Assembly: GCA_977862235.1 (NCBI GenBank)
Contig: OZ374558.1
Coordinates: 620,001 to 684,000, forward strand
DNA length: 64,000 nt
From: Dudresnaya verticillata
Taxonomy: Eukaryota
Direction of reading: 5' to 3'
Shown here: in pieces, positions 12,482 through 49,180 of the stretch
Position numbering within the stretch: the stretch's first letter is position 1
How the letters are laid out: each line of letters starts with the position of its first letter
Program-made: the position numbers and the translations under genes
The notes under the pieces: generated by a model
The model's input: the letters and a program-made list of their open reading frames with translations, nothing else
Told to the model about the DNA's origin: nothing
Database searches by the model: none

Positions 12482-14801
12482 ATGAACAACAGCCATATGG
12501 CTTATGGAGCCGCCAGTTCAAGCAACGGCGTGCTAGGACTCGAGGTCGATGAGATGGGCGTGCCCCTCACTGTCAAGGAGAGCCGCAACTGGCGGGTGCA
12601 CACCGATCTGGCGCACCTGAAAGCGCGAGCTGGCGCTGATCGTACCGACATCCGCCGTCGCGGAGCGCGCCAAGCCCAACGTTGTACTTGGAATACTCAC
12701 GCCCGGGCGCGTCTATCCCTGCTGACGGGTCTAACCCATCGCCTGCCCGCCCTCGTGGGTCCGTGGCAATGGGACTTATCGCACCCGCGCTTTCGGCATG
12801 AAGTGCGCTACACCGCCACATTGTGTGACAAGCTCAACTTTGAGCTGGAGCAGATGCAGAGCGTGTATAACGCTGGGCAGTACGACCTCGGGATGGTTGC
12901 GGACGAGCGCCCACTGATTCGCAGTGGTACGGAAAATTACCCTTACACCATGGTGCGAGTTGTCCGCTGGGACGAGACATCCAACTTCATATTCGCGATG
13001 GATATTCCCCAAAGGGCATGCCGTCAGACTTGGTGCGGTTCGAGCGTCGTAATCGACATCGCACTGGGTGCTACGTCCCGGCACATTGCCAAGAGGTTAC
13101 CTCTATCCGTCCCGAGTTGTACAGGGTGAAGTACCCTCAAGTTACAGGAGATCATGCGGAGCTCGAGGTATCCTACTCCATGCCCGTGGGCACGCCGACC
13201 ATCATAACCTCTCTTGGCTTGAAGATGATGGACACTAATACAGACGATAGCGTATTGTGCCCCATTTTCCGCCACGAATGGATAGTCTTGGTGACTCAAG
13301 TTTTCGTATACGAAGCCCGTCGGGGCTTGTTTTATTTCATCAATGCCCCACTTCGTGCGTCAATCCGCTCCATAGGCTCCGCCGCCTTTACCGCGACTTC
13401 GGCTGATGCCGACGATTTGGACCAACTTCTGGTATTTGTGGAACGGATCCGTTGGAGTGGCGTCTCAAAGCGCAACAGGCACTTGCCTGAGAATACCGGC
13501 CACATCACACCGGTATACGATCGCGGCGACTGTGTCGAGTTTGATGCCGTCAAGTGGCACCCAGTCCTTCCCGACTACGTAATGGCGCCTCTACCCTCCG
13601 AGGGTGAATCGATCCAATTGGATGAAGGAGAACGTCGCACCGGGTACAGCAAAGGTTGGGTGAGCGTTCGTTGGCGCGATGAAGGGCCTAAGCACCCTGA
13701 TGAGGTACCCCTTTCGACGACACTGTCGATGGGGAGCCGCAGGGCCCGTACGCTCCAGTGTTGACACACCATTACCGTGCTGATGCCGAGATCCGTTATC
13801 TATTTGGCCGTCGTGGGTTGGCCATCCGCTTGGCTGCCCATTGGGGAATCTCCTCCCTCAACCTTCGTAGTCTTGCTGACTGGGTTGAGGATGTATTAGC
13901 CGAGTATGAGGCTCACTGGATTGGAACCCCGGGCAACATTGAGCGCCTTCTGGCTCATATGGATAAGATGCCCCCGCTTGGGGGTACCGGGTCTAAGGTG
14001 GAGCCGATGGTCCAGGTTAAGGATGAGACTGGTATCCAGTCTACGAGAGAGCCTGGCTCTAAGGTGCGTCGCGGCGTTGGATATGGTAAGCCGGGTTCTT
14101 CAGCCCAAGGCTCTTCTGGAGCCATTCTGGCATCTGACGCTCGTGAAGCCAATTCGGCTGACGCGTCTAAGATTCCGCGTGAAGAGCCGTCGGCTGGGGT
14201 CTCTAGCGAGGGTTTAACTGCCGGGCCGCCGGCTGCGGCAACTATATCGTCCAAGACCGGCGGTCCGGCTCAGCCATCGGCTTCTCGGGTTGGCGTCCCT
14301 CTGCGCTCAGTGCTTCCAGGCAACGTGCCTACGCCTAGCGAGGCGCGACTCGGGCCTTTGCAGCCGAATCTGGTTGCCACCGGCGAGGCAGTGGAGGTTA
14401 CGTCAGGGCCAAGCCCTACAGTGACGCTGACGCCTATGCCTGCTCAGGCTGAGCTGCCTTCCGACGGAGCCAAGGAGGTTACCACGGAGCCGATAAATGA
14501 GGCGTCGAAGCCTACTGACGACGTGCGCATCAAGACGGAGCTTGTCCTCAAAGAGGAGGAGGAGTTGGAGGTCAACGAGAGCGAAGGTGTTACACCTGAA
14601 GCAACGCCTATGGACGTTGAAATTCCAGCCAGTGAGGCTCGCGGTGCCGCAATGGAGGGCATGTGCCGAGGCCGCGGCCCGCGTCGTGGTCAAGGTCGGC
14701 GAATTGTTCGAGAGGTTCGTCGCATCTTGACGGCACGAGCTCCCGCGGCTCCGAATCCGCCTCTTGACGGCGACGAAGTCATTGACCTTCTCTCGGATTA
14801 G
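12482..14801 (+). pseudogene. Antisense accessory ORF of element A, unknown function (two frameshifts, near 13015 and 13745)
   Basis: ORFs 12482-13129, 13018-13764 and 13758-14801 tile one protein. LVRFERRNRHRTGCYVP, ITSLGLKMM, IFRHEWIVLVTQVFVYEA and VERIRW align to the antisense ORFs of B, C and D. AATAAA at 14881. Confidence 0.75.
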
Positions 14802-15918
14802 CTGAGCCAACTTATTAATGGCTTGAGGCATCGAGCCTAATATGGGTTAGAAGCCTATCCCAGCGGCTTAGCCGCTTATCAATAAACCTTGTCTTGTTTG
14901 CTTAACCAAACGCCTTGGCAGGCTTCGAGCCTTCATGTCCTGTGCCACTTCCCATACTAGGGAGACAGTGGTGTACCTGGCCTGTTCGGGCACCGTGGGA
15001 CAGTCTATTACTGGTTGACCAATACGCCTCCACAGCGTCTGTCGTGGCTTGAGAGCGTGACAGCAATGTCAGCAGTTGCTCTACAGTAAAGAGCGACTCA
15101 CTGTAGCGTGTTTTGGCGCGAAAGCCTTTATGGCTGCCAATTGGCCACACCGCTCCGCCACCTTGCTGTAGCCCCTCCGTGGGCTTTGGTCTCTCGTTTC
15201 AAGCACAAGTTGGGTGCCAGCATGCGCATGGCGCCATGGGTTTTACCCATCGCCACTATCACGAGGTAGAGGTTAGCGGCGTCGGCTTCAAGCCCGCGTG
15301 GCCTCCAAGTTTTCAGCGTCAATACGCTTGGCGCTTATTCCCCCATGTCAATGGGGGTCTCATGCGATTCTCCACGGCTGTCCCAGCAGGGGTGGGAGTC
15401 GTGGTATCAAGACTCATGAGTCTGGGATTGGCGTCTTTTTGGCCTTACGCCCCCACTGGGTTTGGCGCTAGCGCCCTTTTTGGTGGGAGGTAGTTAGCAA
15501 CCCTTCGGGCTCAATGCCCCGTCCAGGTTGCAGCGTCGGCATCGCTTTTGGCAGTCCAGCTGCAGCTGGGCATGCCATCAAGAGCCATCGTGCTGATAAT
15601 TATTGTTGTAGTAAATTAAGCGTTGGCCATCGCCACTGTTCCTTACCCGCACCGAGGGGAGAGTGGCCACCATAGCTTTTGCCTTTCAGGATTGATTCCT
15701 TGGGGTAGCCATGTCCTGGAAACTCTGCCTAACGATAGCCTCTGTGCTCGAGTTTGGCCTTATTTCTTAACCCGGCCTTGAGTAAGGTCGCCAACCTTAT
15801 TAATAGCGATAACTGCTGTACTTTACACCGACACTCTGCTAACGTAGGATCGACTCCTAACTCTCAAGCGCACGCTCGCTTTGGTAGAACCCATCTTACA
15901 GAGGTCACCTCTTGATTA

Positions 15919-16033
15919 CATCTATCCATTTCCATGCATCTATCCAGGATCCAATCCTTCTGACATCTATCCATGTTATACATCTATCCCGAGTCTTGAA
16001 TCTTCGTTCATCTATCCACTTCCACATCTGTCC
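15919..16033. repeat. Array of six CATCT(A/G)TCC motifs (~45-bp unit x3)
   Basis: Copies at 15919, 15937, 15964, 15981, 16009 and 16025. Confidence 0.85.
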
Positions 16034-16328: not shown

Positions 16329-19300
16329 CTAATTGTCAGGGAAAGGTATCCCTTTTTGGCGGTGGTACCTCGCCACCAAATTGTGAGGGAGATTCCCCTT
16401 TGGCTCCCATGTGTCCTGCGAAGCCGGGCTTTGGAACCACCGCACACGATAGATATGTGTGTCGGGGTCATAGGAAACGATCCTTTCGTACACGTGTTCG
16501 CATGGTAGTGCCTTCTTGCAGCGCGAGAATTTGCGGCTTGACGTACCTTCAACCACTGTCGGTGCGGGCGATGGCGCGTCCACTTCATCGTCCATAGGAG
16601 CATTCTCCTGGGGTTGTGGCACAATGGGCGCCGTATGGGCACCGCTAGGTTGCCCATCCCCAAGTGTGTCAGCCAGTGTCTCGCCTACAGCACTAGGTGC
16701 TTCGGGGCGTGCCGGTTCATTACCGCCTGATGCGGTGTCCATCGGGGGCCCAGAGGCGTTTGTGATGGGCCCGTCCGTTGGCCCAGTTGGGCTACTTGAA
16801 GGTGCTGCACCTGTCTCCGGTGGCAACTCCACTACAGTGGGACTCCTGTCTAGTGCCAGCGGCGCTTCGTGTGGCGATGGAGCCAAAGTGACTCGATCCA
16901 AAGAGATTGTTTCTCTATCGCCCTTGATGTCGAGAACCACCACATGGGTGCCTCTCTCGAGAACCTTATATGGTCCAAGGGATTTCGGGAACAGTTTCCC
17001 TTCTCTCGCCACACCTGAAGCGCCCTTCACTTTGGTTTCCCTTTCGAGGAATACCCATGATCCAGGACTTACCTTTTGGTTGGCCGGTCGAATTCGGTTA
17101 TTGAAGTTGGCTTCATACCGCTTTTGCGCTAGTTGCATCCCAGGTAGAGCCGTATCCATGAGCTTTTCCAGCCGAGCGGTTAGGCGCTTCTTGACGTTCG
17201 TAGCGGGTATCCTGTCAATGTCTACCGTTTCCGCTTGTTCCAATAATAGGGAAGTCGGCGGATTTGACAAAACCGAGTCAAAAGGGACTAACCCTGTAGC
17301 GCGGTGGGCTGTCGTATTGTAAGCGTACGTGAGCGCTGAGGTGAACTCTTCCCAGTCCCTCTGGTCTTCCGCTATGAAGTGGCGAAGGCCCGCTAGGATA
17401 GTGCGGTTGAACCTCTCGGTTTGCCCATTAGTTTGGGGATGGTATGTCGACGTGAACATGTTCCGAATCCGTAGGATATCGCACACAGCGAGAAAGAACT
17501 TAGAGGAAAATTGAGACCCCTTGTCTGAAAGGACGTAACGGGGTGGTCCATAGATAAAGCCCCAATGGTCGCAAAACGCCTTCGCCACTGTATAGGCGGT
17601 TACCGTTTTCATCGGTATTGCTCGCGTCAGCTTTGAGAAGCGGTCCGTCATAACCAGCAGGAACTCGTTTCCTTTCCCAGAGCGGGGTAACGGACCCAGG
17701 ATATCGATTCCTACGAACTGTAGTGGCATGGTTGCCGGGAAGAGTTTCATATGCGAAGCATGTTTCCGCAACTTCACCCGCTCTTGCGCGCATTTGACGC
17801 AATTACGCACTGTGGCGTACACATCCAATGCCATCTCTGGCCAATATACCTGTCTTCGCAGGTTGTGATACATCCGGGTGCCACCTGGGTGTCCCGCCAT
17901 CTCGGGGTAGTGGGCTATGTGTAACGCCCTTTCCTGAAGAGAACGAGGTATGAGAACCTGTATCGCCTTGTCGACATATGACTGTCGGACTAAAAGTCCT
18001 CGTTCGTCCTCGAGATAGCAACCAGGCTTCCCGGCTTCGAGGTTCCGTCGGACCCAGATACAGAATTCATCTGTTTTCTGCTCACGGAGCAATTCTTCTG
18101 TGGTTATGAGGGATAGTCCCTTTTGTCCAGATTCCTTCTCGGCCACTTGGGCGATGAACAGTTCGTCATCCGAATCGGACTCATCGACGGGTTCGATTTC
18201 CCACGCTTCCAACGGTCGCGTGTTGGGCTCCGGTTGCGACCTTTCGCAGGATTCGTCCCTCTGATCAGTCTCGAGGACTAAAGATGGGATCTCCAGGTCC
18301 GGTTCCCACGGCGTGAAGCCATACGTGGGAAACCGAGATGCGGCATCAGCAATCTGATTCTTTTTGCCTCTTCGATACTGGACCGTGAAGTCGTATTCCA
18401 GGAGGCGTAATCTCCAACTGGCCAGTCGCCCAGAAGCATCTGTCATGCTCATCATCCATTTCAGCGCTTGATGGTCTGTATACAGGTCAAAGTGGGACCT
18501 TTCTAGATAGGTTCGGAGCAATTGTGCCGCCCAGACCACTGCTAGGCACTCCTTTTCGCCTACAGAGTAATTCTTCTCTGCCTTCGTCAGTTCTCGGCTC
18601 CAGAAGCCCATCGGGTGTCGAGTCCCGTCTTCTTCGGCTTTGAATTAGTGCGCAGCCAAATTGGTAGTCGCACGCGTCGGTATCCACCGATAGGGCCTTA
18701 CCCTCTTGTGGCAACCTAAGAATAGGAGGCGCTATTAGCGCTTTCTTCAGCAACCCGAACGCCTCGCGTTGACGTTCATTGAACTGCGGGAGTTCAAAGC
18801 CCACTTCCTTCTGCAGGAGGGAATTGAGCGGAGCTGCCACGCGAGCGAAGTTAGGTACGAATCGCCTGTAGACGTTGCACAGACCGATGAAAGACCGCAA
18901 CTGGGTCTGGGCGGTCGGCTCCTTGAAGCCTTCGATGGCTTGCGTGTTCTTAGTCGCCACTTCTAATAAATCCGGACGGATGACGTGCCCTAAGCAGTCG
19001 ACACTCTTTGTGAAGAAGTTACACTTCTTAAGTTTCAAGGAGACCCCGGCTTATTGTAATACAGAGAGAATCTCTCTTACATGCGTGACATGCTCGTCGA
19101 CAGTCGCAGAGAATACGATAATATCGTCCAGGTATACGAGGCATGATTTCCATCTAAATCCTGATAAGAGGATGTCAACCGTTCGCTGAAAGGTTACCGG
19201 AGCGTTGCATAGCCCAAAGGGCATCCTGCAAAATTGGAAGCAGCCCGCGTGGAATGTAATAGCAGTCTTATGCTTATCCTCCGGTGAAACTGGAATCTGA

Positions 19301-20863
19301 GAGTAGCCTGAGTTGCAATCCAAGGTCGTGAAATATTGGGCTTCGCCCACGGAGTCCAGACACTCGTCCATGCGTGGCAGAGGATACGTATCCTTCACTG
19401 TAATCGCGTTAAGCTTTCGATAGTCAACGCAAAAGCGGAGTGACCCATCAGGCTTCTTAACCAAGACGACGGGGCTCGCAAACTCAGAGCTTGCAGGCTC
19501 TATGACGCCTTCTTTGAGCATTTTGTCAACCTCATCCTGTTCTGCTTGACGGGCTTTAGGGCCCGACCGATAAGGTTGCTTAATCACAGGTTTCGAACCT
19601 TCTTGAAGCTCAATACGGTGTTCGGTCACCTTAATGGTGCCGATTTGTCCGTCCCACATACCGGCGAACGGTTTAAGCATTTTGCGTACGCGGCGCCGAT
19701 CCGAAGTGGACAGGTGTTCCAGCGCGAGGTCATCGACCGTAACAGCGGTTGACGCTGATGTCGCGATATTGATTCCCGGCTTAGAGTCTATATCCGTCTT
19801 CAGGGCAGCAGCAAGCCCCGCCCCCTACATCGGAGAATGTTCCGGACGAGGGAAGCGAGTCACTTTCAGGAACAGGATCCTCAATGGAGACAGTGTAGAC
19901 CGGCATCTGCGTGGGCGCCGGTACAGCTTTGCCAAGGCTTTGATTCTTGGAAAGCCGCTGAGGACGCGAAGAAAAGTTCGCGACCTGACGTGAAAGAGTC
20001 GTTTCTCTTGAATATTGACGATGCCATTCGTCAAAACAACTTGGCGACGCTCGTATAAGCGGGGGAGGGATTCCAGGAAATGTGTTCCTTTGGAGGAACA
20101 GGTGACAGGAACCCATGGCTCACTGCCCGGCAGTAAATTAGTAGTTTGTGCGACGCGAATGAGTCGCGAGTTAGGTAATGGGGCGAACCTCCATTGGTTC
20201 GTCAGACCTGCCTTCACGGGGTATACCGAATCGGCGGCATAGAATTGGGTGGATGGATCCGTCGCAAAGAACCATGTTCTGTTGGCGGACGCGTAACCCT
20301 TCCACGTGGGTATCGATAAACGTGCAACCCAAAATGGCATCTACTGCCAATGCCCTTACGACGACAAAAGGTTGCCGAACCGTGTAGGACTCGAGCCTGA
20401 TTATCAGGGAGACGGTTCCCAGTGTAGTTAGTCGGTGACTTGACACGGAGGTCAAGTTCACAATTGACCGCGTTCTAGAAATCCTTTTCTTGTCTTTCGG
20501 TGATAGAACATCCGCGCGGATGAGATTAGGGCCTGCCCCTGTATCCAATACGGAGAGCACACGAGTAAGGTCGTCAACAGAAGTCCCAATGGACGCAGCT
20601 ACTTTATAGTTGTAGCGCGACAAGGAGCAAACGGGATCCTTACAATACTCATGATATTTCCGTCCAGGGGGTAAGCCCACGGGACGCGCTAAGATCTTCT
20701 TAGGAAGAGAAGTGACAGATTCACTGACAACCGTTCGATCCGTTGAGGAGAAGCTTTCGAAGCTGTAGTTTGAGGAGCTGGATTCAACATGCCGATCGGG
20801 GGGTTCCGATGCCACCTGTGATATGTGGTGTATCGAAACCGGTGCCCCCCTCGCTAGTTTTTC
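16329..20863 (-). pseudogene. pol: pol of element A: protease, RT, RNase H, integrase, chromodomain
   Basis: LDTGAGPN (PR); LRFCVDYRKLN, MPFGLCNAP, YLDD (RT); DTDAC, TDHQAL (RH); H-H-C-C, GIDILGP, NGQTERFN, GPY (INT); YRVRWFQSPASQDTWEP (chromodomain). Several frameshifts and stops. Confidence 0.95.
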
Positions 20864-22710
20864 GCATTCGTTGCGGGCGACCGCGGTAGCGGTGGAGGTG
20901 GTGGGAAGGGACGAGATCCTTGGCGTGGTGACCTGGACGTTTGCCTCGGAGCGTCAATGGGGTGGTTCAGTCGAGGTTGAAATTGAACCTGTCGATTTCC
21001 CCCTTGACTTGCACCCAAATTTTGACGGGGCTCCATCCGTTGCCCTATGGGCGGCCCGGCGGCCACTCGCCCGTTAGCGAACTCCGGCAGTCGGCCAACG
21101 GTCGCCAACGACGCTTTTTGCTCGTGTGATAGTCGATGAAACTGTCTTCTTTTTAAAGTCTCAAAAGACTGCTCATCGGTACGAGCCAAATGTGGACAGT
21201 TGGGCTTTTATGGCCAATACCGTAGCATTCGAAGCAGATATCATTGGGTTGGTCTTCAACCACCAGCCACACAGGGCGTTGAGTCCTGGTTGGCTGTGCC
21301 CTGGCTGGGAGCCTATGATTGTAGTTCTGCAGTACCGCGTCAACTTCACCGTGATTCGGTTGGTCATAGTAATACTGTGTCGACCACGAATCTGATTGGA
21401 TCGCTGTTGATGGTGCCGCTTCGTTAGCGATTGAGGCCACGATTTCGTCTTTGCTTTCCGCATCAGAGCCGCTGCTCTTTGAAGTATCCGAATCGGAGGC
21501 GGATGCATCCTTCGCCTGGCGAATTAGGAGCACCCGTCCCGACTTGCGGGTACGAACCTTCTTCAAGGTCTTCCTTGGTGGCGTCCTATTCGCTTTTGGC
21601 GTTCGTCCGCCACCCACTAGCGCCCGATGGGAATCTCCCTGTGCAGTTGCAAGCTCGACGTAATCCGCCAGTCTGGCAGTCCTTGGGTCCAATGACGACG
21701 TGCTTAAAAGCGGCTTCACCGCTGGTAACAACCCAAGAATAAACCTGGTTATCAAATCTTGTTCGGTGTACACCCCAGCGACTCGACGCGCTTTGTTCTG
21801 CAACCTTCTCGAAAAAGTAACCTCGTCCTCATCTGGCTCCTGCGCCATAGTGTCCATCTCAGAGGCAATCCTCTCAATGTAGACGTCCTTGGCATGAGTC
21901 CGAAGGAGGTAATTCACGGCTTCGGGCCATTCGGTGAAACCACCATTGTCGTCACCCGCAGCGTCGAAATTCGCTTCAAACACATCCTTCGCATCCTTCT
22001 CGAGGAACTCGGGAATGACGAGGATAACGGTACCTTCGCTGATATGAGCTTGATCAAGCTGCCTCTTCAGCGTGGCTAAGAAGCCAATAATTGACACCGG
22101 GTCACTTCTATCAAAGCGGCGACTCCTCATAACGGACTTTACGCGTTTGATATTTTTCGTGGTCGTCTCGGTCACCTCGGGCCCGCGGTAATCATCCAGG
22201 TTCAATAATGTGCCTATATCTTCTATAGGACAGTACCTGTATGAAGGCGGGATTCCTAGGAGTCAGCTCCTTCACGCCGGAACGTCGGGGAGCCCTCCAG
22301 GAAGACCATGAAGGTCTAGAATGCGAGCGGGAACCCGGTCCTTCTTCATCCGAGGGACCTGTATTAGGGTAAGTCCCTGACCGGTGATTCTCTTCGTGAA
22401 GATGGCTTGAATGTCGGTCACGATGAGAATCCACTGGGTCGCGGTGCGTAGAAGACCCAATTGGTCTGTTGCACTTGCAACCCGGCTGGCAACGGCCTCC
22501 ATCCCCTTCACCTTGGGACCCACTGTCCGAACCCCTATGGGGTAGCCTCCCACGCCTGTCGCGCGTGCCGCGAGGCACCGGTGAACGTCGTCTCATGACT
22601 TCAGGGATAGTATCCCTTTCGCGGATTACGCGCCGCATCTGCAATTCCAGAAAAGCGACACGACGCTTTTCCTCATTGAGTTCTTTCCTTAGGACCTCGA
22701 TGGCTCTGTC
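20854..22710 (-). pseudogene. gag: gag of element A (5' end missing)
   Basis: KELTPRNPAFIQVLSYRRYR and WPEAVNYLLRT are shared with the gag of B and/or C; CFECYGIGH zinc knuckle; ends GAAAAAC-TAG. Confidence 0.85.
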
Positions 22711-23528
22711 TGTGGTGCAATCCCACTGGGTAGAATCGAGGATGCACCTCAGGCGGTTCGGGGGCCTGGCGGTAGCAGGTGAGGTAGTAGCGGTAGAGCA
22801 GGGGAGTAGCCCCGTAGTGCGACTGTAAAACACTACAAGACCGAGAAAGGGGGGTACCCTAGAAAGAAAGAGAAAAAAAGGAAAAATAAGAGAAAAACAG
22901 GATTCTGTACGATGGAGAAGGGTAGCGTACGTACTGGAGTCCAGCCTAGCGACGGAGTCGATAGGGTAGGAGGGTATGTCTCGCTGGGCCCAAGCTTGGC
23001 TGTTTATTGTATGAGGGCGCACCTCAGGGCCCTAATATACTATGTAAGAGGAGGGTGCGCCCTGGTGGCGGATTAAGGTAGTGGAAGGGGGGCGCGCCAC
23101 TTGGCATTACGTGGCCCGCGCAAGTCTATAATTATCTACTAAAATATCAACTCTCAGCCTATTGGTGGTGTGGCTTGACAGTGTGCGCCAAGGGGGCGCA
23201 CGTGCGCACGTGTACGCGTTGTCGTCTTGCGGGGCCATCCTTGCTGGCAGCGGAAACTGTCAGCGGCGATGGCTTACAGGGGGATTTCCCCAATATCATT
23301 GCTGGCGTATGCGCGTGGTGCCAGAGCTTATTACAGGAATTGGCTCTGAGCTCAAACATACGCGCAGCGGTTGATCCGCAGGAACCGGCCGCTGTGCGTC
23401 CGTCGTCCGCAGTCGCGTGAGCCGCGGGTGGCGGCATTATGAATAATTCTTCAGCTGGGCGCGAAGGCGATTTGAGCCAGATCTCCCCCCCGTTAAGCGG
23501 CGAGTATCCGCACGAGCCCACACTAGCA
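22711..23528 (-). repeat. Probable 3' LTR of element B (right boundary approximate)
   Basis: TGTGGTGCAATCC terminus, a purine-rich U5-like stretch and a TATA-like element near 23035. A purine tract GAAGGATGGG lies on the minus strand just beyond 23528. Confidence 0.5.
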
Positions 23529-23649: not shown

Positions 23650-25329
23650 ATGCCGCCGAACTTCTCACTGGCGGAGCTAGACCGCGTGCTTTTGCGCGCC
23701 CCGCAGACATCTGCATCGTATCCATCGCCAGCCGAGTTTGAAGGCAAGACGCCTTGGCGCGACCTTATTGAATTCGCGAACGCTCCGTGGATGTTCCACA
23801 ATAATTTCGGGAACCACGCTCTCATCGAGCAGTACGTCTCGGAAGACGGTTTCCTTCCTGGGGAGCTTCCCCTGCGCGTAGTAAGGACGCCCGAATGGCG
23901 GCGGCATGGCGCCATTCGCCCGGATTGGATCCGCCGTCACGGCGGGTAGGACGTACGCAGGGCAAGGTTGCGGTATGTCCGCTTGGTCTTCCAGCGGCTT
24001 TCCCGCACTCCCTGTCGGGTGGTCATACCGCACGGCTACTGGCTTGACCCTGGCGTCTATCGCACCGTTGGGGAAATCCCCTATGCTGATGCCCTTGAGA
24101 ATCTTCCCATCCCGCATGCGTGGGATGGGGTCAAGCCTCGGGTGCGCCAGTCGGCACTGTTACTGGGCGTGCAGCTTCGTGCGGAATTCCGCTTTGTGCG
24201 CAAACGCGAGAATAACGCACTTTGGGAAAAGATTCGTTGGGAGCGTCGCGCTCGCTCCCGTCTGGGCTTCCCGGTGCCCTATCCAAATGTCGAAATCGAC
24301 GAAATTCATCGCACTTATCGTGATCGATGTTATGTGCGACTGCCCGTCCCACAGTGGGGCTTGGTGGAGTGTTGTGAGGGTTTCCCCGTCGAGTTGTCCC
24401 CCGCGGTGAGTTACACCATGTCATCTGTTATCGGCTACCCGCAGTCGGGATTGTGGACCGTGTACTACAAGGAGTTTGTGGCGAAGACGGCTGTGCAGTG
24501 GCTGTGGGAATTTTATTATACGTACCGTATGTGGTACGTATCTCCCACAGTCCTGACGCTCTTTGCGCAGTTGGACTTGAGGATTATCCTAGGCGGAGTT
24601 AACAATGAAGCGGAATTCCGCGTATTGTTGGGGTTTTATGCCCAAGTTGATTGGGACCATGACGATCAGCGGGTCCCGTTGTGCAACAACAAGAGGAGTT
24701 CCTCATCGACCAATTTCTCGCCTGGGCTTCGTCACCCGTCTTGCGGCGATTGGGCTTGGTTCGACCCTTGGACGCGAACTTTCGTCGCTGCGGACCGTGC
24801 CGTTTGGTTGCGTAACCACCCGCGTTCGATGCCGCCGGGCCAGCCGTGAGGCTACCTGGTGGACCCCGAGGCGGGTGCCGTTGCCGAGTCGGATTACGAG
24901 GAAAAATCCTCCGACCCGGGTAGTAATGGGGAACTCCCCGATGATGACACGATGACGATCGATACGCTGGTGGTGGGAGAATGCCCGGTTGCGGCAGTGC
25001 CGGCTACTGATGATCCGAGCGGGACGGCGGAAGCGACGGTCGACACGGGTGAGGCAAATGGCGGCGGCGCTGTGATTGCGAGCGTGCCGACCGTTCGGCC
25101 TCCAGCCATTCACCCGTCGTCGCCTGACCCTGAGGGCCAGCCTCGCGCACGTCGCGTGCGACTGAGCTTCAGTCAGCGTATTGCCGTGATCGGCTTTCTG
25201 CGTCGGACGGGAATTCCCGAGAGTGCCATCCGCGGCAACGACGAGGAGCTCCTCGAGGCGGCCGTGGATAAGGGTTATGACCCGGACGTCGAGGAGGAAG
25301 CGGGCCCAGGCGGGCCTGCTGATGTCTAG
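23650..25329 (+). pseudogene. Antisense accessory ORF of element B, unknown function (one frame, two premature stops)
   Basis: ORFs 23581-23949, 23968-24849 and 24859-25329 are in the same frame (stops at 23947 TAG and 24847 TGA). Strong similarity to the C copy: SPAEFEGKTP/SPVDFFGKNP, LLGVQLRAEFRF/LLGVRLKADFRY, CEGFPVEL/CEGFAVEL, SCGDWAWFDPWT/ACGDWIHYNPWT. Confidence 0.85.
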
Positions 25330-26073
25330 TCGATCGTCGACATGTGGCGTGGGGCAACCGACCACGTGGGAGTAGTCCGTGCGCTGTAGTAGGGAGAGCG
25401 TGACCATGTTCAGGACTTATTAAAGTTTGCCTTTTGTTGTTTTGTTTGCTTTAATACGGCGCGTTGCTGTTAGGGGTGTTTCCCTGAGAGGTGGTGAGGC
25501 GTAGCGATTCGCAAGGCAACTGTCGGCGCGCGACGGGGTCGCGATACGTCGTCATTGAGGCATATGCCGCGCAGCGTGGAATTCCACATATCGTAAGCAA
25601 CTTGCACGTAGATGTGCCCCGACCACTGGGCGTGCGGTTGCTCAAGGCCGTTGGCGGCTCAGAGCGGTATGTACGGATTTCCGTTTTGGGCATGGCTCGC
25701 AATTCCAACTTAGTCGTGAACGACTTGGGGGAGGAGGTGAGGTGTACTTGCGGTCGTCCGCTAGGGTGGGCCGCTGTGTGGGCACACGGCAGGTGATTGG
25801 TGCGGGGTGCGTCGGCACCATGATTATCCAATGGGTATTCATGGAGTGGAGCACGGCACGTGACTTGAATGCACACTGCGGCGGGTACAGTAGACCAAAC
25901 GCGTACTGTGGCCTAGCCACATTAATTGGGTATACAGAAGTCTGTTGTCGAGTTTGTCTGCCTATGTTGCATGCTGACCCGTTCGCGCAAGCGCCGATCT
26001 GAGCAGTTGGGCGATAGGGCGATTCAGTCCGTCAACGTCGAGTCGAGTTCGACGTGAGAAAGGACGTAGCCGT

Positions 26074-32341: not shown

Positions 32342-32343
32342 TC

Positions 32344-38000: not shown

Positions 38001-39746
38001 ACTGCTATGCGACCGTCCGCAACTGCGTAACCTGCGCTAAGAATCGCGTATTGCTGCGAAAGAACCAAGCAACTGAAGTTGTTCCAGGCAACCGAGCCTC
38101 TCGAATTCGTATCGATCGACATCCTGGGCGAACTCATATGCACGAAGCGAGGAAACAAGTTCCTACTCCTCATTGTGGACCGCTTCTCGAAGCTGGTCCG
38201 GACGGTCCCACTGCGTAGTATTACGGCATTGGAAATCGCTAAGGCGTTTGTACGACATTGGGTCTTCGTGTACGGTCCTCCCAAGAAACTCTTGTCCGAC
38301 AACGGACCACAGTTTGTGGCTAAGCTGTTTCAGGATATCTGCCGTCTTTTGGGAGTGGGGAATCTCTTCACCACGACGTACCATCCGCAATGCAATGGCC
38401 AGGTAGAACGATTCAATCGAACTATCCTGGCCTCGCTGCGTCACTACGTTGCGGATCATCTGAGAGACTGGGATCTGTTCACGGATGCCTTGACGTTCGC
38501 ATACAACACCCAGTTGCATTCGTCTACGCATCTCGCTCCGTTTGAATTGGTGCTGTCTAAGCCACCACGGCCATTTTTGCTCGAAGCGGAACCGTCGCTC
38601 GAAAGCGTACCCACCGCGGGGCAATAATACACCAAGTGGCGAACGTGGTTGGCCGCACTGATGGGAACCGCTAAAGCGTCGTACGAGAAAACTCAAGCAC
38701 GTTACAAACGGAACTTCGATACCCGATTAAGGAAATTGAAGGAAGCAATCGCCGTAGGCGACTTCTTATTCGTACGTAAGGAATACTTCGCCCGCGGCGG
38801 GAGCACGGATCGCGCAGAGCGTAAGCATAAGTTGGCGCCAGTGGCGGACGGACCATATTGGGTAACTCACGTTGAGAACGAGACCGTAACCGTCGAAAAG
38901 GGACGTGACGAGCGGGAACGTTTGTCCCGAGACCGCGTGGTCTGGGCTCCGACCCCACCGGGTCAAGCGGCCCCTCCAATCGTCGTACCAACAGGCCCGC
39001 CTGAGGAGCAGGAAGCAGTCGCCCCCACGTCACAAGACGAAGGGACGACTACCCCGGGCATGCCACCAGCGGACCCGGAGGGGGACGCAGAGACTTCGCA
39101 TACTGCGGGAGATCCGCAGGAGCACACAATTGCAACGTCACGCAGTAGTGGGTTGGCAGAGCTTTCGTACTTCGCCGCCGACCCCGACGACCGCGCTTCG
39201 CAATCCGTCTCCAACGACGACAATACCCCAGGGGTTCGCACCCGTTTGGAACACGTCGCTACGGCACCGCCGAATGAGAACAATGACTGCGCTGAAAGCG
39301 CGTCCGATAACGAAGACGTTAACCGTGTAAGCACGAAGCAAGGCACTGCAAGCGATGGACTCGTCTCAAGACGCAGCAACCCACTGACCGCTGATCGAGC
39401 GTCCGAGGCCCAAGGCCAACGCCTTCGGCGATCAACTCGTTGAGTACGCTTCTCCGAACCGGAGCAGACGCCCATCACGCAACGCGACGAACCGCCAAAG
39501 GCGCTGGAAGGGCCCACGTCCAAGCCGAACGCTGTGAGCGGGAAAGAATGCGTGATCGAACGCATCGAGTCGCACGCGTACGCGGGTGATGATGAGATCC
39601 TCTACCGTGTCAAGTGGTTTGGATACCCTGCTTCAGCGAACACCTGGGAGCCAGTCTCCAGTTTGCCGCGATCCCACGTCACACGGTACCACCGTCGAAA
39701 ACGTACACAGCTGCCGCCAAACGTCGACGACGCGCAGCGCGGCTAA
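35028..39746 (+). pseudogene. pol: pol of element C: protease, RT, RNase H, integrase, chromodomain
   Basis: LDTGAGPNFI, YLDD, TDHSSL, SIDILGEL, NGQVERFN, GPY, and chromodomain VIERIESH...YRVKWFGYPASANTWEP (39534-39746). Multiple stops and frameshifts. Confidence 0.95.
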
Positions 39747-41298
39747 CCCTAATCCGGAAATACCGCTGGAAGCGAATGGACGGACGATCGAGACCGCGTG
39801 CTCGACCTACGATCGCCAAAGGCGCGGAAGCTCAACCCATGGCCTGTGGACGCGGTCGCCAGAGCGACAGCGCCAAACACGTTTGCGCGCCATGGACGAA
39901 CGCGGACGCAAGTCGTTGCGTCATAGACAGCCAAGCGCACTTCACCTCGCAGCAGCCCCCATACGGAACTTCTGGATGGGCGCGCTGTTGACAATGGATC
40001 CAGATCGCAAATCCAGATCCGCCGCCCGCGCCCCTCGGGTAATAGGAGGAGGTATTTGGTCAAATTTTAATTTCCAAACACGGCAGCGTGCACCACCCCG
40101 CCGTCAACGCACGACGAACGCAATCATGCCAAGTGACTGAGCAGGTGCTACGAGCCCCAGCGACGACAGGCGCAAGTGGCAGCGCGCAACAACCGTCTCC
40201 GACGTCGAGATGTGCACTCGCCCCACGGCCAAGTCTCTGGGACCACCACCCTGCCGGCCACCGTCTCGCGCGAAAGCACCCGTCGAACGTCTCCAACGTA
40301 ACTCGCCGAAAAAGGGGCGCACCGACAAACCCACCCCCGAAGGGGGGAGGTGGTTGAAGACGCAGTTGCCGTGGGTTCCGTGCACGACGCGCCAACAAAT
40401 CGCCAACGACTCCGCCGCTGCCCGCGGCTGCCGCGGTCGCAGTCGCGCGAGCGCGACCACCCTACCCTACCCCCAAGGAGGAACGTCGAAGATGAAAGGG
40501 GCGGCAACGCAAAGGCGTCAACACCTACCTCATCGCCTTCGCGACCCTCGTCCAGGACGCCGACAAACCACGCCCAAGGCGCAGCGCGACACATGCATTA
40601 CAAAAACGCTAAGTCAGCGGAAATACGCCAACAGCCGCACGTGCAACACGACGAACAACGCTACGACAGCGGACCCTACCCGCCAAACACAGCCAAGTGC
40701 CAACGCATGGCTAAGGCTAATGGAATCAGACGCCAACGCTACTGTAGCGGGCAATCACGAAAACGACGCATGGTCGAAGTGGGACCACAGGGCACACCTT
40801 AAGACCAACGGGAAACGCGACACGGGAAGACGCTGACAATGGCCGAAGTTTACGGGGCTTTAAACGGACGGGGACAACCCCTCGTCCTCGCTAACAAACG
40901 ACCATTACAGCTACACTAATCGTTAATGACGACGAGAACAACGCCTCAGGCGCACTACACAACGCTAACGCAGCGAGCAACGAGGGGGAGTACAACGCCC
41001 AGATCACGTCGCCACGACGAGACAAGGATTTCGCTGACGCGCCCGCAACACTCGTCGGCAAAGACGCGACGGCCGCGGCAAGACGAAAACAAACTACGTT
41101 ATCAACGATGCAATTTATTGGGGTAAGCAACGAGGAACCCCCGCACCCAAACTCCAAGCCACGGCGGCTAACGCCGCAGGACATTCCACATTACTCGTCA
41201 ACAACGTATGATCCCCTACCTGCCGACTCCGCAAGGGAGCCGACAAGGTACGACAATGCTCTCACCACCGCCTTTCGCCCCAAACGACGCCGACTACG

Positions 41299-43659
41299 TC
41301 ACGTCGCAGGCGGCTTCGCTGAGCCCACAGCACCATCGCCCTCGGCGGACTCCCTCAATGCCTCTTCATAGAGGTCATCTTCCGTCACCGACGGCAAACC
41401 CACAGCAGTAGCTGGGACGGACCGCAAAGGCACCGCCACCACTGTCGCTGAAGGAGTATCACGCGCCACTGGCGAAGCGTCCGACTCACCGCCTGCATTA
41501 GACGGCGAAGCCTCTTTGGCTTTGACAACCGCCGATGGCGTAGAACCAAGTCGATCACTCGCCTCCGGCGCTGCCACGACAATATCCGCCACAGGCGATG
41601 AAGCAACAACATACGCCATAGGCGCAGAGCTCAAGCTATCGTTCGCCTTAGGCGCGGGCACAGCCCCATCCGCTTTAAGCGCAGTCAACGACTCATCGAC
41701 CGCCTTTGGCGTAAGTTCAGAAACCGCCTCGATTGGCGTCGCCTCTTCACTAGCCTTCGGCGTTGTTAACCCGACACTCGTCACTGACGCAGGAGCACCT
41801 AGCCCGTTCGGAGCCGTCAACGACGCAATAGCAGCATTCGCTTGGCTCGCCGCAGGCGGTACAGTCATACTCACGTCTTTAGACGCTGGAGCATTCGCCT
41901 TAGGCGACGAAGGCTTCTCTGCCACACCTTCCTTCGACGCAGAGTCTACGACAATAGTCGACTTCGGAGCGGGCCCACCCTGAGGTGGAACCGCAGCCGA
42001 CAAAGATTGGCTCATCCACTCTGAGGGTGAGCCGCTCAGACGGCTAGTAGCGACGCCAGCAGCCCGCAATAACGCAAGCACGGTGCGGCGCTGTTATTCG
42101 GTCGAAACCGGCACCGAAGCTGGACTTCCTGAACCGTCTACGACGTTTGATACTTCGCCTTGAGGCGTTACGGTCGGCGCAGCCGACTCAAATATTGGCG
42201 TCGCCATAAAGGCATCGCCATCATCGTAAGCGACGGGAGCCGAAAGGTCCAGAGGTGCAACAGCTGGCAGGCCAGCTGGCACTCCACCGCCACCGACAGA
42301 ACCTCCGGGCAAAGCCGATGGTGTGGGTGCAGCCTCGGCAGACGACTCAACCGCCATAGGCGTAGCGACATCCGTCCCAGACGGGTTCCCCGGTTCTCCA
42401 TCGGCGTTAAACGCACCCTCCACGGCCATTAAGGCACTCAAATGCGGAGGAAAATCGCCGACAAAGTCGCAGCTCTTACGCAAACCACGCGGATGATTAC
42501 CCGGGGTGAAGCGGTCCGTTTTGCGATGGCGCTCCGCAACATTCTTCGTCGTACGACGCTTAGTCCATGGATTATAATGGATCCAATCGCCACAGGCGGA
42601 GTGAATACGACTCATCGTGAATCGCGGACTGTTCGCCTTACGGCGGTTGTTCGCATACGGCACCATCGCCGGATCGTTCCAATCGATCTCATCCGCAACA
42701 GCGCGCAGGTTCCAGAACTCCTCGGCGTTCCGGTAACCGCCAAATATTTCGACCAAGTCGAGGCTACCAAGCTGGGCCACCACACGCGGGGGTAGATGGT
42801 ACATACGGAAGGTGTCATACGCCTCCCATAACCACGCATATGCCACGTTGGCGACCCACTCCGTGTAAAACACGATCCAATACCTGGAATACAGGTCGGT
42901 CATCAGCTCGGAACCAAGAGACGTGACATTTGGGGGGAGCTCTACGGCGAAACCCTCGCATATCTCAAACTCTCGCCATACAGGCGGTACCTTCACGAAA
43001 CAGAAGGGTAACTTACTACGCTCAATGCGATCGACCTGCATGTCCTGGTAAGGTACTAATACGCCCTTTAGGCGACGCGTCTCGCACTCCCACCGGATAC
43101 AACGCTCCCAAAAGAACGTATCCGTACGATGCAAGTAACGGAAATCCGCTTTCAAGCGTACGCCTAATAGGTAAGCCTCTCCCAACACACGGGGTTCAAT
43201 CGACACGCTCACATGTTTGAGCGATAGCGTCCCGAGACGAGCACCATATTCGGTCTCGCCGGCTGTGCGATATTTCTCCGCATCATAATTGAACAGGGGC
43301 GGCGTTAACGTCGACCCCGGATAACGCGTGAAACAACGATAAAAGTTTGAGACGAACTGCGCGTGGACTTCCGCACCCGATTGTCCCGCTCGCACCCAAA
43401 GCCATTCCGCAGGAACGGCACAGCGCAACTTCCATTCCAACGTCCAGACGACGCCAAGGGGCAGGCCCCCCGACAAGAAACCGCTAGTAGCGTAATGAGC
43501 GACCAGTTCCTCCTCGCGCAAAGCCTCCTGGTCAAACCAGGGGGCCCGCGCGAAGAAATGCGCGTGATCGCGAGGGTTCTTCCCGAAGAAGTCGACCGGC
43601 GAAGCGTACACCGGCGTAGCCGAGGGCGCCGCCACCTGCATGCCATTGAACATCGGCAT
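41299..43659 (-). pseudogene. Antisense accessory ORF of element C, unknown function (one frame, one premature stop)
   Basis: ORFs 42094-43707 and 41299-42081 are in frame; first ATG at 43659. Homologous to the A, B and D copies. AATAAA on the minus strand at 41114-41119. Confidence 0.88.
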
Positions 43660-44135: not shown

Positions 44136-44144
44136 GGAGGGGGG
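44136..44144 (+). promoter_or_regulatory. Polypurine tract of element C
   Basis: GGAGGGGGG, 3 nt before the TG of the 3' LTR. Confidence 0.8.
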
Positions 44145-44147
44145 TCT

Positions 44148-45051
44148 TGTGGTGCAAGGGGAGGTGAGCCCTTTTTCGCTGAAAGCGGGCAACAACAAAT
44201 ACGTCGATCGACGGAGAAACCGCCACCGGCGCTCACCACCGCCATTGGCGCGCGAACACGTCATCGACGGCTCACTGGGGCGCGCGCGCACGCTGCGCGC
44301 CGCGCGCCACGCGGGCACTGTACGGTGATGGGCCGACATGGCGCCCCGGGGCACTGTAATACGGATCCACATGGGATCCGGATCCGGTATCCAGATTGGC
44401 CATCCGGATCGCCTGAGCTGTAAGATACGCGCCTGTAAGGCTGCGAGTGCTCGCATTGCTGGCCCGGGTCCGGACGGGATCGGGATCGGACAAGTATCGG
44501 ATTGGATCCAAGGCGCACGCTCTACAGTACACGCGCGCGCACAGCTGTAAGGCACACGCGTCCACGGGTGTATGTAAGCGCCCACGCAGGGGGTTGCGCG
44601 GCAACCTCTCAGGCGCGCGGCTGCATGCGATGAGTGATCTGTCAGACGCGCCTCGGGACGACACGTGTCCCGAGTTCCCGCGCTACGCACACGCACCGCC
44701 GCCGCCGCACCGCCGTACTATACTTGGGTAAGCCGTCCCAGACGTAGCAGTAAACGCCCGGGCAAGCCGGCCTTGGTCCAGACTTCCCCGTTCCGCACGC
44801 GCGTACCCTACCGCTGCCTACGGCTCAAGCGTCTACCTCCCGTGCTTCCACGTCCATCACCGTCCTTGAAGTGTTTCCCTTTTGTTCCCTTTTTCCTTCC
44901 TTTCCGCCTCGGGCGTCTACAGTCCGCCCAAGGCGTGTCCTCTGCTCTACCACAAGCCGCGCAAGGCGAGGCTACTCACCGCCACGGGCGCAGCTACCCA
45001 CCGAGCCCCGAACTGCTCGGCGGTGCACCGTCTTCAGACGTTTGCACCACA
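44148..45051 (+). repeat. 3' LTR of element C
   Basis: TGTGGTGCAA...TTGCACCACA is a perfect 10-bp terminal inverted repeat; homologous to 31443-32341. Confidence 0.92.
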
Positions 45052-46637
45052 AGTCGAGAGTTTTAACGAGAACCTTGTCCAGCGGTTACGTCATTACGCA
45101 GTGGATCATCAACGTGACTGGGACAGCTAAGTGCATCCGCTCACATATGCGTATAACCTTCAGGTTCACCACTCTACTGGTACTACGCCCTTTGAACTCG
45201 TCCTATCCCGGCCACCTTCGGATATACCTCTACAAGGTTCTCCCACATCGCTTCTAACCAGTCAATTGGATTCTCAATTCACCGCAGCCGCTGTTAGGCG
45301 TTTAACCCTTCGGAAACTTCAACAGGCCATTGCTACCACTAAGGGCACCCTCACGGTTGCCCAACAACAGTACAAACATGCCTTTCATACCTCCGTGGCA
45401 CGACCCTTTTCGGTTACTGTTGGAGCTTGCGTCTACCTCGATCGCCCTAAATTCACTAAACGCCAAGTAGGTGAACGTGTGGTGAAGCGGCCGATGTGGA
45501 GTGCCGACGACGGTTGAGCCGACTCGCGACCGGCGCCCCGGTGAGCTGGCGCCAAAATCCGAACGGGAGTGCAGCGACACAGTGGCACTGTACGCCTTGC
45601 TGGAGTCTGCGTGCACCACCAATAGGAGCCAAGTAGTTGATTTATTTGTAATTAGGTAATTGTAATGATGCTGTACAGTACGTAGTGTCAGCCGGCCAAT
45701 GAGAATGCCGAGCATGTCCGCAACGGTGACCGGGACCAGTAGGACCGGACCCACCGGTGGCCCAGACCCATTGGGGTCTGGTCCACACGGACCGGACCGC
45801 GGGCGTATCTCCCAGTATATTAATGCGTGGCCACCGCGAGTCCTACAGTAAACGGGCACGCAACCCTGGGCAAAGTGACTTACCCTTAGCCTTACCCTCA
45901 TACTCCTTTACGGTTTCCCCTCGCCAGCCCCGTGCACGGATTCCTCTTACCTCCGTCCCGGTGTAGCTGCCCTGGAACTGTACCGTCCCCCTTGTCTGTT
46001 GTGTCCCTTTACTCCTTACAGGTGTTGCCGCTCGAGGTACTCCCTTCGGTCTACGAACTAAGCTCTACTACCCCGGTGCCGTGTGAGATCACTCCTTATT
46101 GGGATTGCCTGATCAGCTCTCCTTACAGGTGTGCCTTTCACTTCAACAGAACGACAGGCTTCCCTCGTCGATCCTGCTGAGGAGCAAAACCTTTCACGGA
46201 AACTTTTGCGCAAAGCGACCGGACCCTTTTTGGTTACAGCCGTTCATGCCAACCATACGGTCACCATTAAGCAATACGGGCTCTTTAATACCGTCTCGCA
46301 AGACCACATTTCGGTTGACCCTCATTGTGGTCCCCGCACGGGCTAACCACGAGGGTATTCAGGATCCACCATCGGCTCCTACGCCGACTACATCGCAAAC
46401 CCACTCGGATTACTATACGGTTGACCATTGGTTACGCACCGTGTCTCCAATTGTGGGTACCAATACAAGGTTCGCTGGTATGGTTACGCCCCCATTCCTG
46501 ATACTTGGGAACCGCCCGCACACATCCCGCACAACTTTGTGTTACGCTACTGGCGCCGGCTTGACCAGACGCCACCGCCCGGAGCTGGGGGGTGTAGGTT
46601 TCGTAGACTTTCGCGGACTTTAAAATATCCATCGTGA
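45052..46637 (+). pseudogene. pol: Integrase C-terminal part and chromodomain of element D, split by a solo LTR
   Basis: VESFNENLVQRLRHY..QRDWD, LTYAYN..HHSTGTTPFELV, KLLRKATGPF, YKVRWYGYAPIPDTWEP. The reading KRQVGER|QASLVDP rejoins across the TSD. Confidence 0.9.
45478..46148 (+). mobile_element. Solo LTR (671 bp), TSD GAACG
   Basis: TGTGGTGAAG...CTTCAACA flanked by GAACG at 45473-45477 and 46149-46153. The core is similar to ~51900-52080. Confidence 0.9.
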
Positions 46638-46883
46638 AACGTCACTCAGAGAGTTATGGCCACCCGATCAGAAGGCCACGCGATTGCCTTATCCCATGGA
46701 GGCAAACGAAACGGCACCATGTCCGTCCCTCTTCCTTTCTTCTATTTATTTTACGCTGTTTATGTACAGTACTACTGTACTCTCACAGAAACTAAGTCAA
46801 TGGAGAACCACACAGGGAGATACAACACAGGACACAAGATGTTTTACTGGACACTCTTAAGATCACCCATGAGGTTCTTCTAC

Positions 46884-49180
46884 TCAGAATATATACTGGT
46901 AACGCGAGCGCTTCTCGCCCGACCCATCGATCTCGCCCGAGCGTGAAGCCGCCAGGCGGCGGGGTTGGAAAGACGAAGCCTGAGGCGCTACCACTGGGGT
47001 AACAACTCCAGGAGTCGCCTCTCGAAAAGCCGCCGGACCAACTACCTCCACAGCCGAAGTCTCCATGAGCTGAGACACCTGATAGGTAGAAGGTCCGGCC
47101 CCAGTGGTCTGCCCGTCCTCAAACACAGCGGTTACCTCTTGGGTAGCAGCTCGACGCGCTGGAACTTCTGGAGTTGTACTCGTTGGGTCCGAAGCCAGCG
47201 GATCACCAGTTGGGTAATTGGCTGTCTGAGCTAGAGCCCCCTGAGCCTTAGTTCTGAGATTCAGTTCGCTCTGATGCATAACCATACGGGTGAACTTCTT
47301 GCACGACGTAGCGAAGCTCATTGTGTTCTGTGGCATCGCCGCCGCCATACTCGCGAGAGGCGACTTGACGGTCACCACTTCGGTTCCGAGGAGATCCCTC
47401 GCTGCCGTATGGTTGTTCAGCTGATCAATTTGAAAGTTACCCATCCGGGTCACCTCGCGAAGTAACCACTTGAGGAGTGCCTCTTTAGGAACCCACTCAA
47501 GGGCAGCATCAAAGGCTTCCTCTACGGTCTCCGGAACGGGTACCTTCGCGTCGCGGCAAGCCTCCTTAAGTAGCTCAACCCTAAGGTGAACCGAGGAAGG
47601 TAGCGTAATCCCTGAAGCAACCGTCGTGGTGCCAGAAGGGCCACCTGGTTGACCCACCGGGGTAGCTCGTGAAGTCGCAATTTCTGGGGTCGTCAATCCG
47701 GACGTAGCCACAGGCGCGACCACAGTTGGTAGCTTCGGAAGGGTTGCTCGCACAGGTGTCGCCGATCGTCGACCACACATGTGCGTCATCGTCGCCGGTG
47801 TTACTCCTGGATCCGGAGCCGCTCGACGCGCTCCGATACCCGGTGGAGCAGCCCTCACCCGATAGCTATCGCCACGGGCCTCACGAACCCGATCGGGAAA
47901 ACCTCCATAGGTCGTCGCATCTGGTTCTTCGTCCACAAGGTTCCTCGCCGAGCTTGGCGTAACCTCACTCCAACCCCGATGGTTATCATATGGTTGCTCA
48001 AAGGAGTACAGTGGGGGACCAGGACGGTTATCCACAAGGTGGCGCCTACCATGACGGTCAACCGCTTCGGAAACGCCGCCGTCATAGGCAATCCAGGCCT
48101 CGCCGGCAGCCCACTTGAAGGTCTCCGTGGCGGTCAGCAGCCCCGCCAAATATTCACCAGCAAAGTTACTCCCCTCAACAATACGGTCAACCCCAAGGGT
48201 GCGGATGGACTCGATGAGTGTCTTCGGGAGGCAAAAGAGTCGACCATCAGGGAGACCATCTTGAGCGTGGTAACCATCCTCGGTATACGGTGTCACTTCG
48301 CACATGCCAGAATGGGTGGCGTGCAGAAATGCTAATGCCACGTGGAGAACCTGTTCGGTTTTGGCTATTGACCATACTGGGTAATACCACTTCGAAGATC
48401 GGTCACGAGCGTCAGCGCCATAATAGGCCAGAACGCCTGGAGTTAGAGACGGCAACGAACGCGGGCCTTCAATGGTATGCCAACAGTTGAGTTTCTTGGC
48501 GTAGTGTTCTCGGCGCCGGCCCAAAGGGAGATTCCACATCTCAACGTTATGGAAACCTGCGAGGAGACCATCTGCACGGTTTCGGATGCGCGTCTCCGTC
48601 CAAATATTCACGGCCCACCACTCCGTCAACCACAACAGCTCAGGAAAGGGCTTGGCTTCCATTAATAACTCGGGGAGTAACTTGATTCCCTTCACCCACT
48701 TGTTGCCTTCAAGCTAGTCATGGACTCTTGGAACGTAATCTTCTTCAAAACCAACACGGTACCACTTGAGGTCACACCCGTTATGGCGTGGCAAGAGGGT
48801 GCTCGGCGGACAGTGACGCAGACGTGCGACCCACTGCGACTCGCGGTTTCCTTCAGGGACGGTGCGAAACCGATAGGTACCCGCATTGGTGCCCAAGAGG
48901 CAGACCTGCAGTGGAAACGTCTGGAGTACCTCTGCGTTGGAGAGGGAGGGCAAGAATCGGTAGTTGACCGAGGGGGAGGATTCAGCCATCGCGGCGTAGT
49001 ACCCTCCGCGGGGGACGCAAGGCGTGACTCGAAAGACGATGGGTGGATCGGAGAGACGACGCCGGCGCTGGGGCGAGAGACGTTGAGTTGGTTGCGCCTG
49101 ACGTGGGACCATATTGGAAAAGACTTTGAGGTGATGATACACTTGAGAAGAAGTACCGGTGAACTCGGGATCGATTGCAT
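46884..49180 (-). pseudogene. Antisense accessory ORF of element D, unknown function
   Basis: The 603-aa ORF 46884-48695 is in frame with 48714-49142 across one stop; start approximate. KTEQVLHVALAFL and RLFCLPKTLIESIRTLGVDRIVEG...ETFKW align to C (YTEWVANVAYAWL; RMYHLPPRVVAQLGSLDLVEIFGG...DEIDW). AATAAA on the minus strand at 46745-46750. Confidence 0.75.

Follow-up and report, generated by a model that had tools for sequence, protein, structure and literature searches.

Introduction

Extra genes in antisense orientation have been on record in long terminal repeat (LTR) retrotransposons since the 1990s, their functions being still unsolved (PMC7264820). Those located between pol and the 3′ LTR (aORF-3R) are described there, with unknown function, in maize Grande (gene23), rice RIRE2, Silene Retand, PvRetro13 and Botrytis Boty, and gene23 of Grande yields a nuclear product from a promoter of its own. 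The Retand lineage, confined to flowering plants, does not belong to the chromoviruses, and 97% of its clusters encode TRP28 (PMC11963269). Here, we analyzed a 64,000-nucleotide stretch of the red seaweed Dudresnaya verticillata (assembly GCA_977862235.1, contig OZ374558.1, positions 620,001 to 684,000; hereafter the window), in which four large open reading frames (ORFs) lie antisense to pol of Ty3/Gypsy elements designated A, B, C and D. The plant precedents that an initial annotation of the window had invoked for these ORFs are real (PMC7264820, PMC11963269).

The ORFs of the window resemble the aORF-3R genes in where they lie, in their orientation, in lacking env features and in being conserved across divergent elements, and they would probably also have a transcript of their own, whereas the encoded protein is unrelated and matches neither TRP28 (PF04195) nor SMC. 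In contrast to non-chromovirus Retand, the carriers A, C and D have an integrase chromodomain, and none was detected in B. Among algae, REM1 of Chlamydomonas reinhardtii is reportedly a Gypsy element with a third module in reverse orientation after pol, an arrangement that the window elements would share. REM1 is cited second-hand for a PHD finger (PMC6673714, PMC9940879), whereas the antisense protein of the window has no PHD finger, conserved Cys/His or chromodomain. The transposon-encoded anti-silencer VANC of Arabidopsis VANDAL elements has a MAIN-like fold (PMC13547354). Only the proposed mode of action, an element-encoded trans factor opposing silencing, is alike: VANC comes from DNA transposons, and the window protein has no sequence match in Pfam or PDB, its fold having been compared through a weak model. 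The env-like ORFs of Gypsy/Athila elements are likewise third ORFs between pol and the 3′ LTR, but the window gene is antisense rather than sense and encodes neither a membrane helix nor a hydrophobic N-terminus.

Chromodomain Gypsy elements also arose outside the chromoviruses (PMC12477816), and there are reports of accessory genes in algal DNA transposons (PMC12477816, PMC6431247, bioRxiv 2025.02.11.637652); in the accessible portions of these three sources, the antisense gene of the window is not described. Nor was a description of its protein family found in the literature searched, a search that lay outside Repbase, REXdb, GyDB and subscription papers; the curated-repeat supplements of the Bostrychia preprint could contain such elements. 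The slot, an antisense ORF between pol and the 3′ LTR, is known, and the protein family occupying it is apparently undescribed.

Profile searches place the four antisense genes in one family

As the initial annotation had reported, four large ORFs of 559–786 codons lie 3′ of integrase on the opposite strand, each pointing to pol, and the peptides it quoted are present. Every one carries one or two lesions:

12482..14801, + strand: antisense gene of A, ~773 codons, in three frames with frameshifts near 13030 and 13740; shared core at ~13030–13560; hhalign to B+C, E 4.8e-6
23650..25329, + strand: antisense gene of B, 559 codons, with in-frame stops at 23947 and 24847
41299..43659, − strand: antisense gene of C, 786 codons, interrupted once, by an in-frame stop in the tail at 42096; the conserved domain lies at ~43600–42500
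46884..49112, − strand: antisense gene of D, 742 codons, with a single in-frame stop at 48716

Gene D had been annotated as extending to about 49180. The gene itself stands; 49112 is the position of the ATG in its frame, and a different frame holds the one near 49180. An antisense placement relative to gag-pol, with pol on one side and the 3′ LTR on the other, is evident for C from both LTRs and for B from the purine tract and LTR end; the genes of A and D lie downstream of integrase with LTR limits that are tentative.

Direct comparison linked two of the genes clearly, B and C being 36% identical over 386 residues (tblastn, E 4e-69), and tblastn detected neither A nor D. In pairwise alignment, A–C scored 80 and D–C scored 61, each reached by 0 of 300 shuffles, the D–C value being nonetheless marginal; A–D was not significant. 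Profiles reached further. The B+C profile detected A at E 5.9e-7 and D only at E 1.2, the A+B+C profile detected D at E 4.4e-4, and the A+D profile detected C at E 5.7e-8, with the best reversed-sequence controls at E 0.14–1. A four-row profile of the genes then recovered two outside proteins, P0001 (460 residues) and P0002 (651 residues), which are stop-free singletons from ENA assemblies. Used alone as an independent hidden Markov model (HMM), these two proteins found C at E 4.6e-73, B at 8.9e-54, A at 3.7e-15 and D at 7.8e-6; of the 1,306 six-frame ORFs, no other reached E<2. In hhalign, C+B+P0001+P0002 matched D with E 8.8e-6. The profile results show that the four antisense ORFs are one homologous family, in agreement with the initial annotation.

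The part common to all six members is approximately C185–365. The N-terminal 180 residues are clearly common to B, C, P0001 and P0002; the N-terminal half of D is marginal by profile (9 of 2,000 shuffles score as well), and that of A is not significant (351 of 2,000 shuffles equal its score). This result, together with the core identity of A and D to the other members of only 17–27% and the failure of tblastn to find either, is what could be said for chance open frames or convergent similarity in place of one family. Such an origin is very improbable: the independent P0001+P0002 profile finds all four genes and nothing else, which refutes it for the core, and stop depletion and the codon pattern described below also oppose it. 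The frames are much more open than shuffling would leave them: gene B holds 2 stops where shuffles had a mean of 18 and, in 500 of them, never fewer than 7, gene C holds 1 where 28 are expected, and gene D 1 where 26 are.

The antisense genes carry ~1.3–3.6 lesions per 1,000 codons and pol ~3.4–8. Since their lesion density is not above that of pol, the genes were probably intact when each copy inserted and decayed along with the elements. Introns were considered as the source of the breaks and are not needed, because the first stop of B falls within a gap-free alignment and the stop of D has no spanning candidate.

When protein C alone served as the query, none of 5,345 candidates of 286–912 residues matched. 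The four-row profile matched 2 of 7,691 candidates (144–707 residues), and a six-row profile none of 3,922 (1,141–3,255 residues); between these profile searches lies the range of 708–1,140 residues, the size of full-length A, C and D. No relatives were found in phages or in locus scans of metagenome, viral and prokaryotic contigs.

Selection on the antisense gene and its inheritance

Over 379 codons of the antisense gene, B–C nucleotide identity was 0.52/0.60/0.34 at the three codon positions, a contrast that protein-guided alignment exaggerates. A pattern of the same shape was found between B and C in reverse transcriptase (RT; 0.77/0.87/0.40) and gag (0.62/0.67/0.28). The antisense frame gave a B–C alignment score of 617, and none of the other 17 frame pairs exceeded 306. 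To the extent that aligned sequences reveal it, the codon-position pattern shows purifying selection at the protein level, which upholds the selection put forward in the initial annotation; the roles it suggested for the gene, anti-silencing, transactivation or targeting, are conjectural. No sequence similarity to TRP28, PHD or VANC/MAIN proteins was found. No ratio of nonsynonymous to synonymous substitution rates (dN/dS) was obtained, because third positions are saturated.

The B–C protein identity was 37% for the antisense gene versus 75% for RT, 72% for integrase (INT) and 47% for gag, by which measure the antisense gene is evolving faster than pol and gag. In the four-element comparison, B and C were closest for both the gene core (40%) and integrase (52%), so that both split BC|AD, an agreement which luck would give one time in three with four taxa. 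The agreement fits vertical co-inheritance of gene and element. The gene is likely an old one, and the integrases of the carriers are only 30–52% identical.

Polyadenylation-like signals behind the antisense genes

A polyadenylation-like hexamer follows each gene on its own strand:

14881..14886, + strand: AATAAA, 80 nt past the stop of gene A
25419..25424, + strand: ATTAAA, 90 nt past the stop of gene B
41114..41119, − strand: AATAAA, 180 nt past the stop of gene C
46745..46750, − strand: AATAAA, 134 nt past the stop of gene D

The pattern A(A/T)TAAA was present within 200 nt after the stop in 4/4 genes on the gene strand and in 1/4 on the opposite strand, both the hexamer pattern and the 200-nt window having been picked after inspecting the sequence. 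The background was 75 of 1,622 windows, and the shuffle rates were 0.04, 0.02, 0.01 and 0.18. A promoter in or near the 3′ LTR is likely to drive a separate antisense mRNA that ends at A(A/T)TAAA ahead of pol.

Because the 3′ signal is located before pol, the RNA of the antisense gene would not overlap pol. This position bears on the suggestion that the gene spread by some other route, namely through host manipulation or benefit, through an antisense RNA that tunes the element with the protein being secondary, or from host source genes represented by the outside homologues. P0001 and P0002 are known without genomic context, and regulation by antisense RNA is discussed in PMC7264820, both of which would suit such a route. 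We consider it decidedly unlikely, however, given the missing overlap with pol and the protein-level conservation across elements with so little integrase identity.

Architecture of the antisense protein

The protein consists of a globular domain of ~380 residues followed by a low-complexity tail. The core is aromatic-rich and predicted to be mostly helical, and a basic E-x3-R helix is present in 6/6 members. The tail has 60–400 residues, of which 57–70% are P/A/S/T/G/E/D, and is mostly acidic (isoelectric point (pI) 4.1–4.8 in B, C, P0001 and P0002, and 5.0 for the tail frame of A). There is no hydrophobic N-terminus and no membrane helix, since the highest 19-residue hydropathy is only 1.51; the absence of an env-like membrane anchor noted in the initial annotation was thus confirmed.

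Invariant in all six members are G60 (doubtful for A), E191, R195, G199, E232, E267, L318 and W327. Fifty-two positions do not vary between B, C, P0001 and P0002. Trp, Tyr and Arg are frequent among them, and Cys, His, Ser, Lys and Asn do not occur; this composition speaks against a zinc finger, a thiol or serine hydrolase or a His-ligated dioxygenase. On another reading, the protein would be an enzyme that has escaped recognition, or a captured and disarmed one, with host defence marks or nucleic acids as its targets and a site formed by D-x4-R-x3-E-x2-Y and three invariant glutamates. E191, E232, E267 and R195 are invariant in 6/6 sequences, the conserved 380-residue domain is of enzyme size, and the motif occurs exactly once per gene, that is, four times in 93,819 six-frame residues (reversed control, 1), although it was chosen post hoc and B and C match by construction. 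An enzyme is nevertheless unlikely in our judgement, as the invariant set is devoid of His, Cys, Ser, Lys and Asn and there is no sequence match in Pfam, NCBIfam or PDB.

Pfam, PHROGs and NCBIfam gave no match of note for the antisense proteins, and TRP28 (PF04195) gave none at E≤10 in six core pieces or in six tails and outside proteins. The sole PDB profile hit, the UHRF1 Tudor region at E 0.18, is likely due to chance, the structural model having no beta-barrel there. The domain, which the initial annotation had not recognised, is likewise without a match in the libraries searched (Pfam, PHROGs, NCBIfam and PDB), and the protein family appears undescribed.

A first AlphaFold model with a predicted local distance difference test (pLDDT) of 37.8 was discarded. 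The second had a mean pLDDT of 50.6 and a predicted template modelling score (pTM) of 0.45, reaching pLDDT ~70–83 across most of residues 260–330 and 360–380. Queried with this weak model, Foldseek gave nothing at E≤0.001 in either PDB or BFVD; the best result of the VIA comparison among 48,161 chains was Z 4.3, with a root-mean-square deviation of 2.8 over 59 residues. The fold check proposed in the initial annotation therefore yielded an absence of hits and no verdict on the fold: searches with so weak a model would indicate neither a known nor a new one.

A helical, helix-loop-helix-like motif of ~35 residues was also considered in the tails of B (~25170–25280), C (~42093–41990) and P0002. 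It passed 1 of 3 leave-one-out tests, was not found in A or D, and is not claimed.

Proposed function

From the architecture, the fast evolution and the precedents, we tentatively suggest that the protein might be a nuclear factor acting in trans that sustains expression of its own element against host silencing, a role that we regard as possible rather than probable. The antisense gene would be transcribed separately, from the 3′ LTR side. The globular domain with its basic helix would bind nucleic acid or chromatin of the element and so recognise it, and the disordered acidic tail would recruit activating or de-repressing host factors in trans. These factors would offset silencing and keep the element family expressed.

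Several observations weigh against this proposal. The tail of D is basic (pI 9.2), and the basic clusters seen in the proteins do not amount to a nuclear localisation signal that is conserved. Searches turned up no DNA-binding, zinc-finger, PHD or chromatin-enzyme domain of a known kind; the absence of Cys, His and Lys from the 52 invariant positions points the same way. P0001 and P0002 are known from protein sequence alone. The post hoc choice of hexamer and window, the alignment effect on the codon contrast, the saturated third positions and the one-in-three quartet count here too.

The same profile, codon-pattern and hexamer support for a selected gene would serve equally for a real accessory gene whose protein acts in the replication cycle, either by binding genomic RNA or virus-like particles, or in nuclear import or targeting of the pre-integration complex. 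The basic helix and the many invariant Trp, Tyr and Arg residues suit RNA as well as DNA binding, and such roles have been proposed for antisense ORFs (PMC7264820). A replication helper seems somewhat unlikely, however: separate antisense transcription would be a better fit to a regulator acting in trans than to a particle component needed in stoichiometric amounts, a chromodomain for targeting is already present in the integrases of A, C and D, and the gene outpaces pol and gag in divergence, as proteins in conflict with the host tend to.

A more far-reaching reading, which we consider unlikely, is that an old lineage of algal chromodomain Gypsy elements has carried an antisense gene for an anti-silencing protein of new fold since before their integrases diverged to ~30% identity.

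The carrier elements and their surroundings

Pfam and tblastn identified the region from ~10.6 to 51.3 kb of the window as a block of LTR retrotransposons, with the following parts (PR, protease; RH, RNase H; PBS, primer-binding site; PPT, polypurine tract):

10634..12211, − strand: candidate 3′ LTR of A, tentative; terminal inverted repeat 9/10, without partner LTR or clear PPT
16329..22710, − strand: element A, 3′ part of gag, then PR-RT-RH-INT-chromodomain, 5′ part gone (Pfam)
22711..23479, − strand: probable 3′ LTR of B, whose end sits within the gag-leading ORF of A; inner boundary inferred from the purine tract 23480–23491
26074..31442, − strand: element B, pol (PR-RT-RH-INT) together with the 3′ part of gag, which an LTR cuts off at 31442
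31443..32341, + strand: 5′ LTR of C, chimeric, with the PBS directly after it
32483..39745, + strand: gag-pol of element C, chromodomain at 39495–39722, interrupted by stops and frameshifts
44148..45051, + strand: 3′ LTR of C, with a purine tract ahead of it and the integrase of D directly adjoining
45052..46620, + strand: element D remnant, C-terminal integrase half and chromodomain (46464–46559), interrupted by a solo LTR; detected by tblastn at E 1.7e-17 and 1.1e-5
45478..46148, + strand: solo LTR within the integrase of D, with a 5-bp target-site duplication
49485..50608, + strand: candidate 3′ LTR of D with tentative limits, a purine-rich tract lying before it

The domain order gag-PR-RT-RH-INT of Ty3/Gypsy is present in A, B and C (Pfam, tblastn). 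Ty3 Gag-Pol is the top PDB match for RH-INT of A (E 1.3e-39), and the chromodomain of A lies under the curated cut-off (Pfam, E 1e-4). Four divergent Gypsy elements had been annotated; this holds for A, B and C and does not hold for D as a full element, whose gag and RT are absent from the window and whose remaining integrase C-half is 30–38% identical to those of A, B and C. The end of the 3′ LTR of C (45051) falls inside the integrase of D, and the LTR beginning at 31443 interrupts gag of B. Between the two LTRs of C, the last (right) 295 nt are 96% identical and the remaining left part only ~55–75%, and no target-site duplication surrounds C. On the simplest reading, the insertions were nested and a pair of related LTRs then recombined once, an event that would have deleted the 5′ parts of A, B and D; misassembly would give the same picture of chimeric C LTRs and missing 5′ parts. 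Since the block is nested and partly deleted, D is an integrase/chromodomain remnant, and the window therefore holds one near-complete element (C) and three truncated ones.

Other repeats surround these elements. A copy related to the solo LTR of D, ~72% identical to it, lies at 51900–52205, and two related LTR-like stretches (50127–50425 and 50790–51083) form an inverted pair, face to face, with 81% identity over 215 nt. A decayed Ty1/Copia element (RVT_2, protease, DUF1759) occupies 56654–64000, its LTR copies being 90% identical over 88 nt, and a C-related solo LTR is inserted in it from 62165 to ~63100. At ~52750–56050, decayed transposase-like frames on the + strand and a convergent 383-codon ORF (54565–55716) without Pfam hit make up a region that we take to resemble a PIF/Harbinger-type DNA transposon. 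Outside the repeats, two convergent, apparently intronless bZIP-like paralogues lie at 5243–6532 (+) and 6847–7782 (−), with 76% identity over 102 nt; one of them matched Pfam bZIP_1 at E 0.0016, below the cut-off. Such genes without introns, together with the GC content and the character of the elements, suggest a red-seaweed host. No tRNA or Rfam match was found in the window.

Significance

The family adds a large, well-conserved and unclassified domain to the antisense genes of LTR retrotransposons, common to deeply divergent chromodomain-bearing elements outside flowering plants. Tests of structure and function are practical, as two natural members are free of stops and the invariant residues make up a short list. 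The host being a red seaweed, the finding bears on how such algae silence transposons and how transposons answer, a question raised in bioRxiv 2025.02.11.637652. If an anti-silencer of new fold were indeed encoded here, it would be an independently evolved retrotransposon counterpart of VANC and would offer a handle on transposon silencing in red seaweeds.

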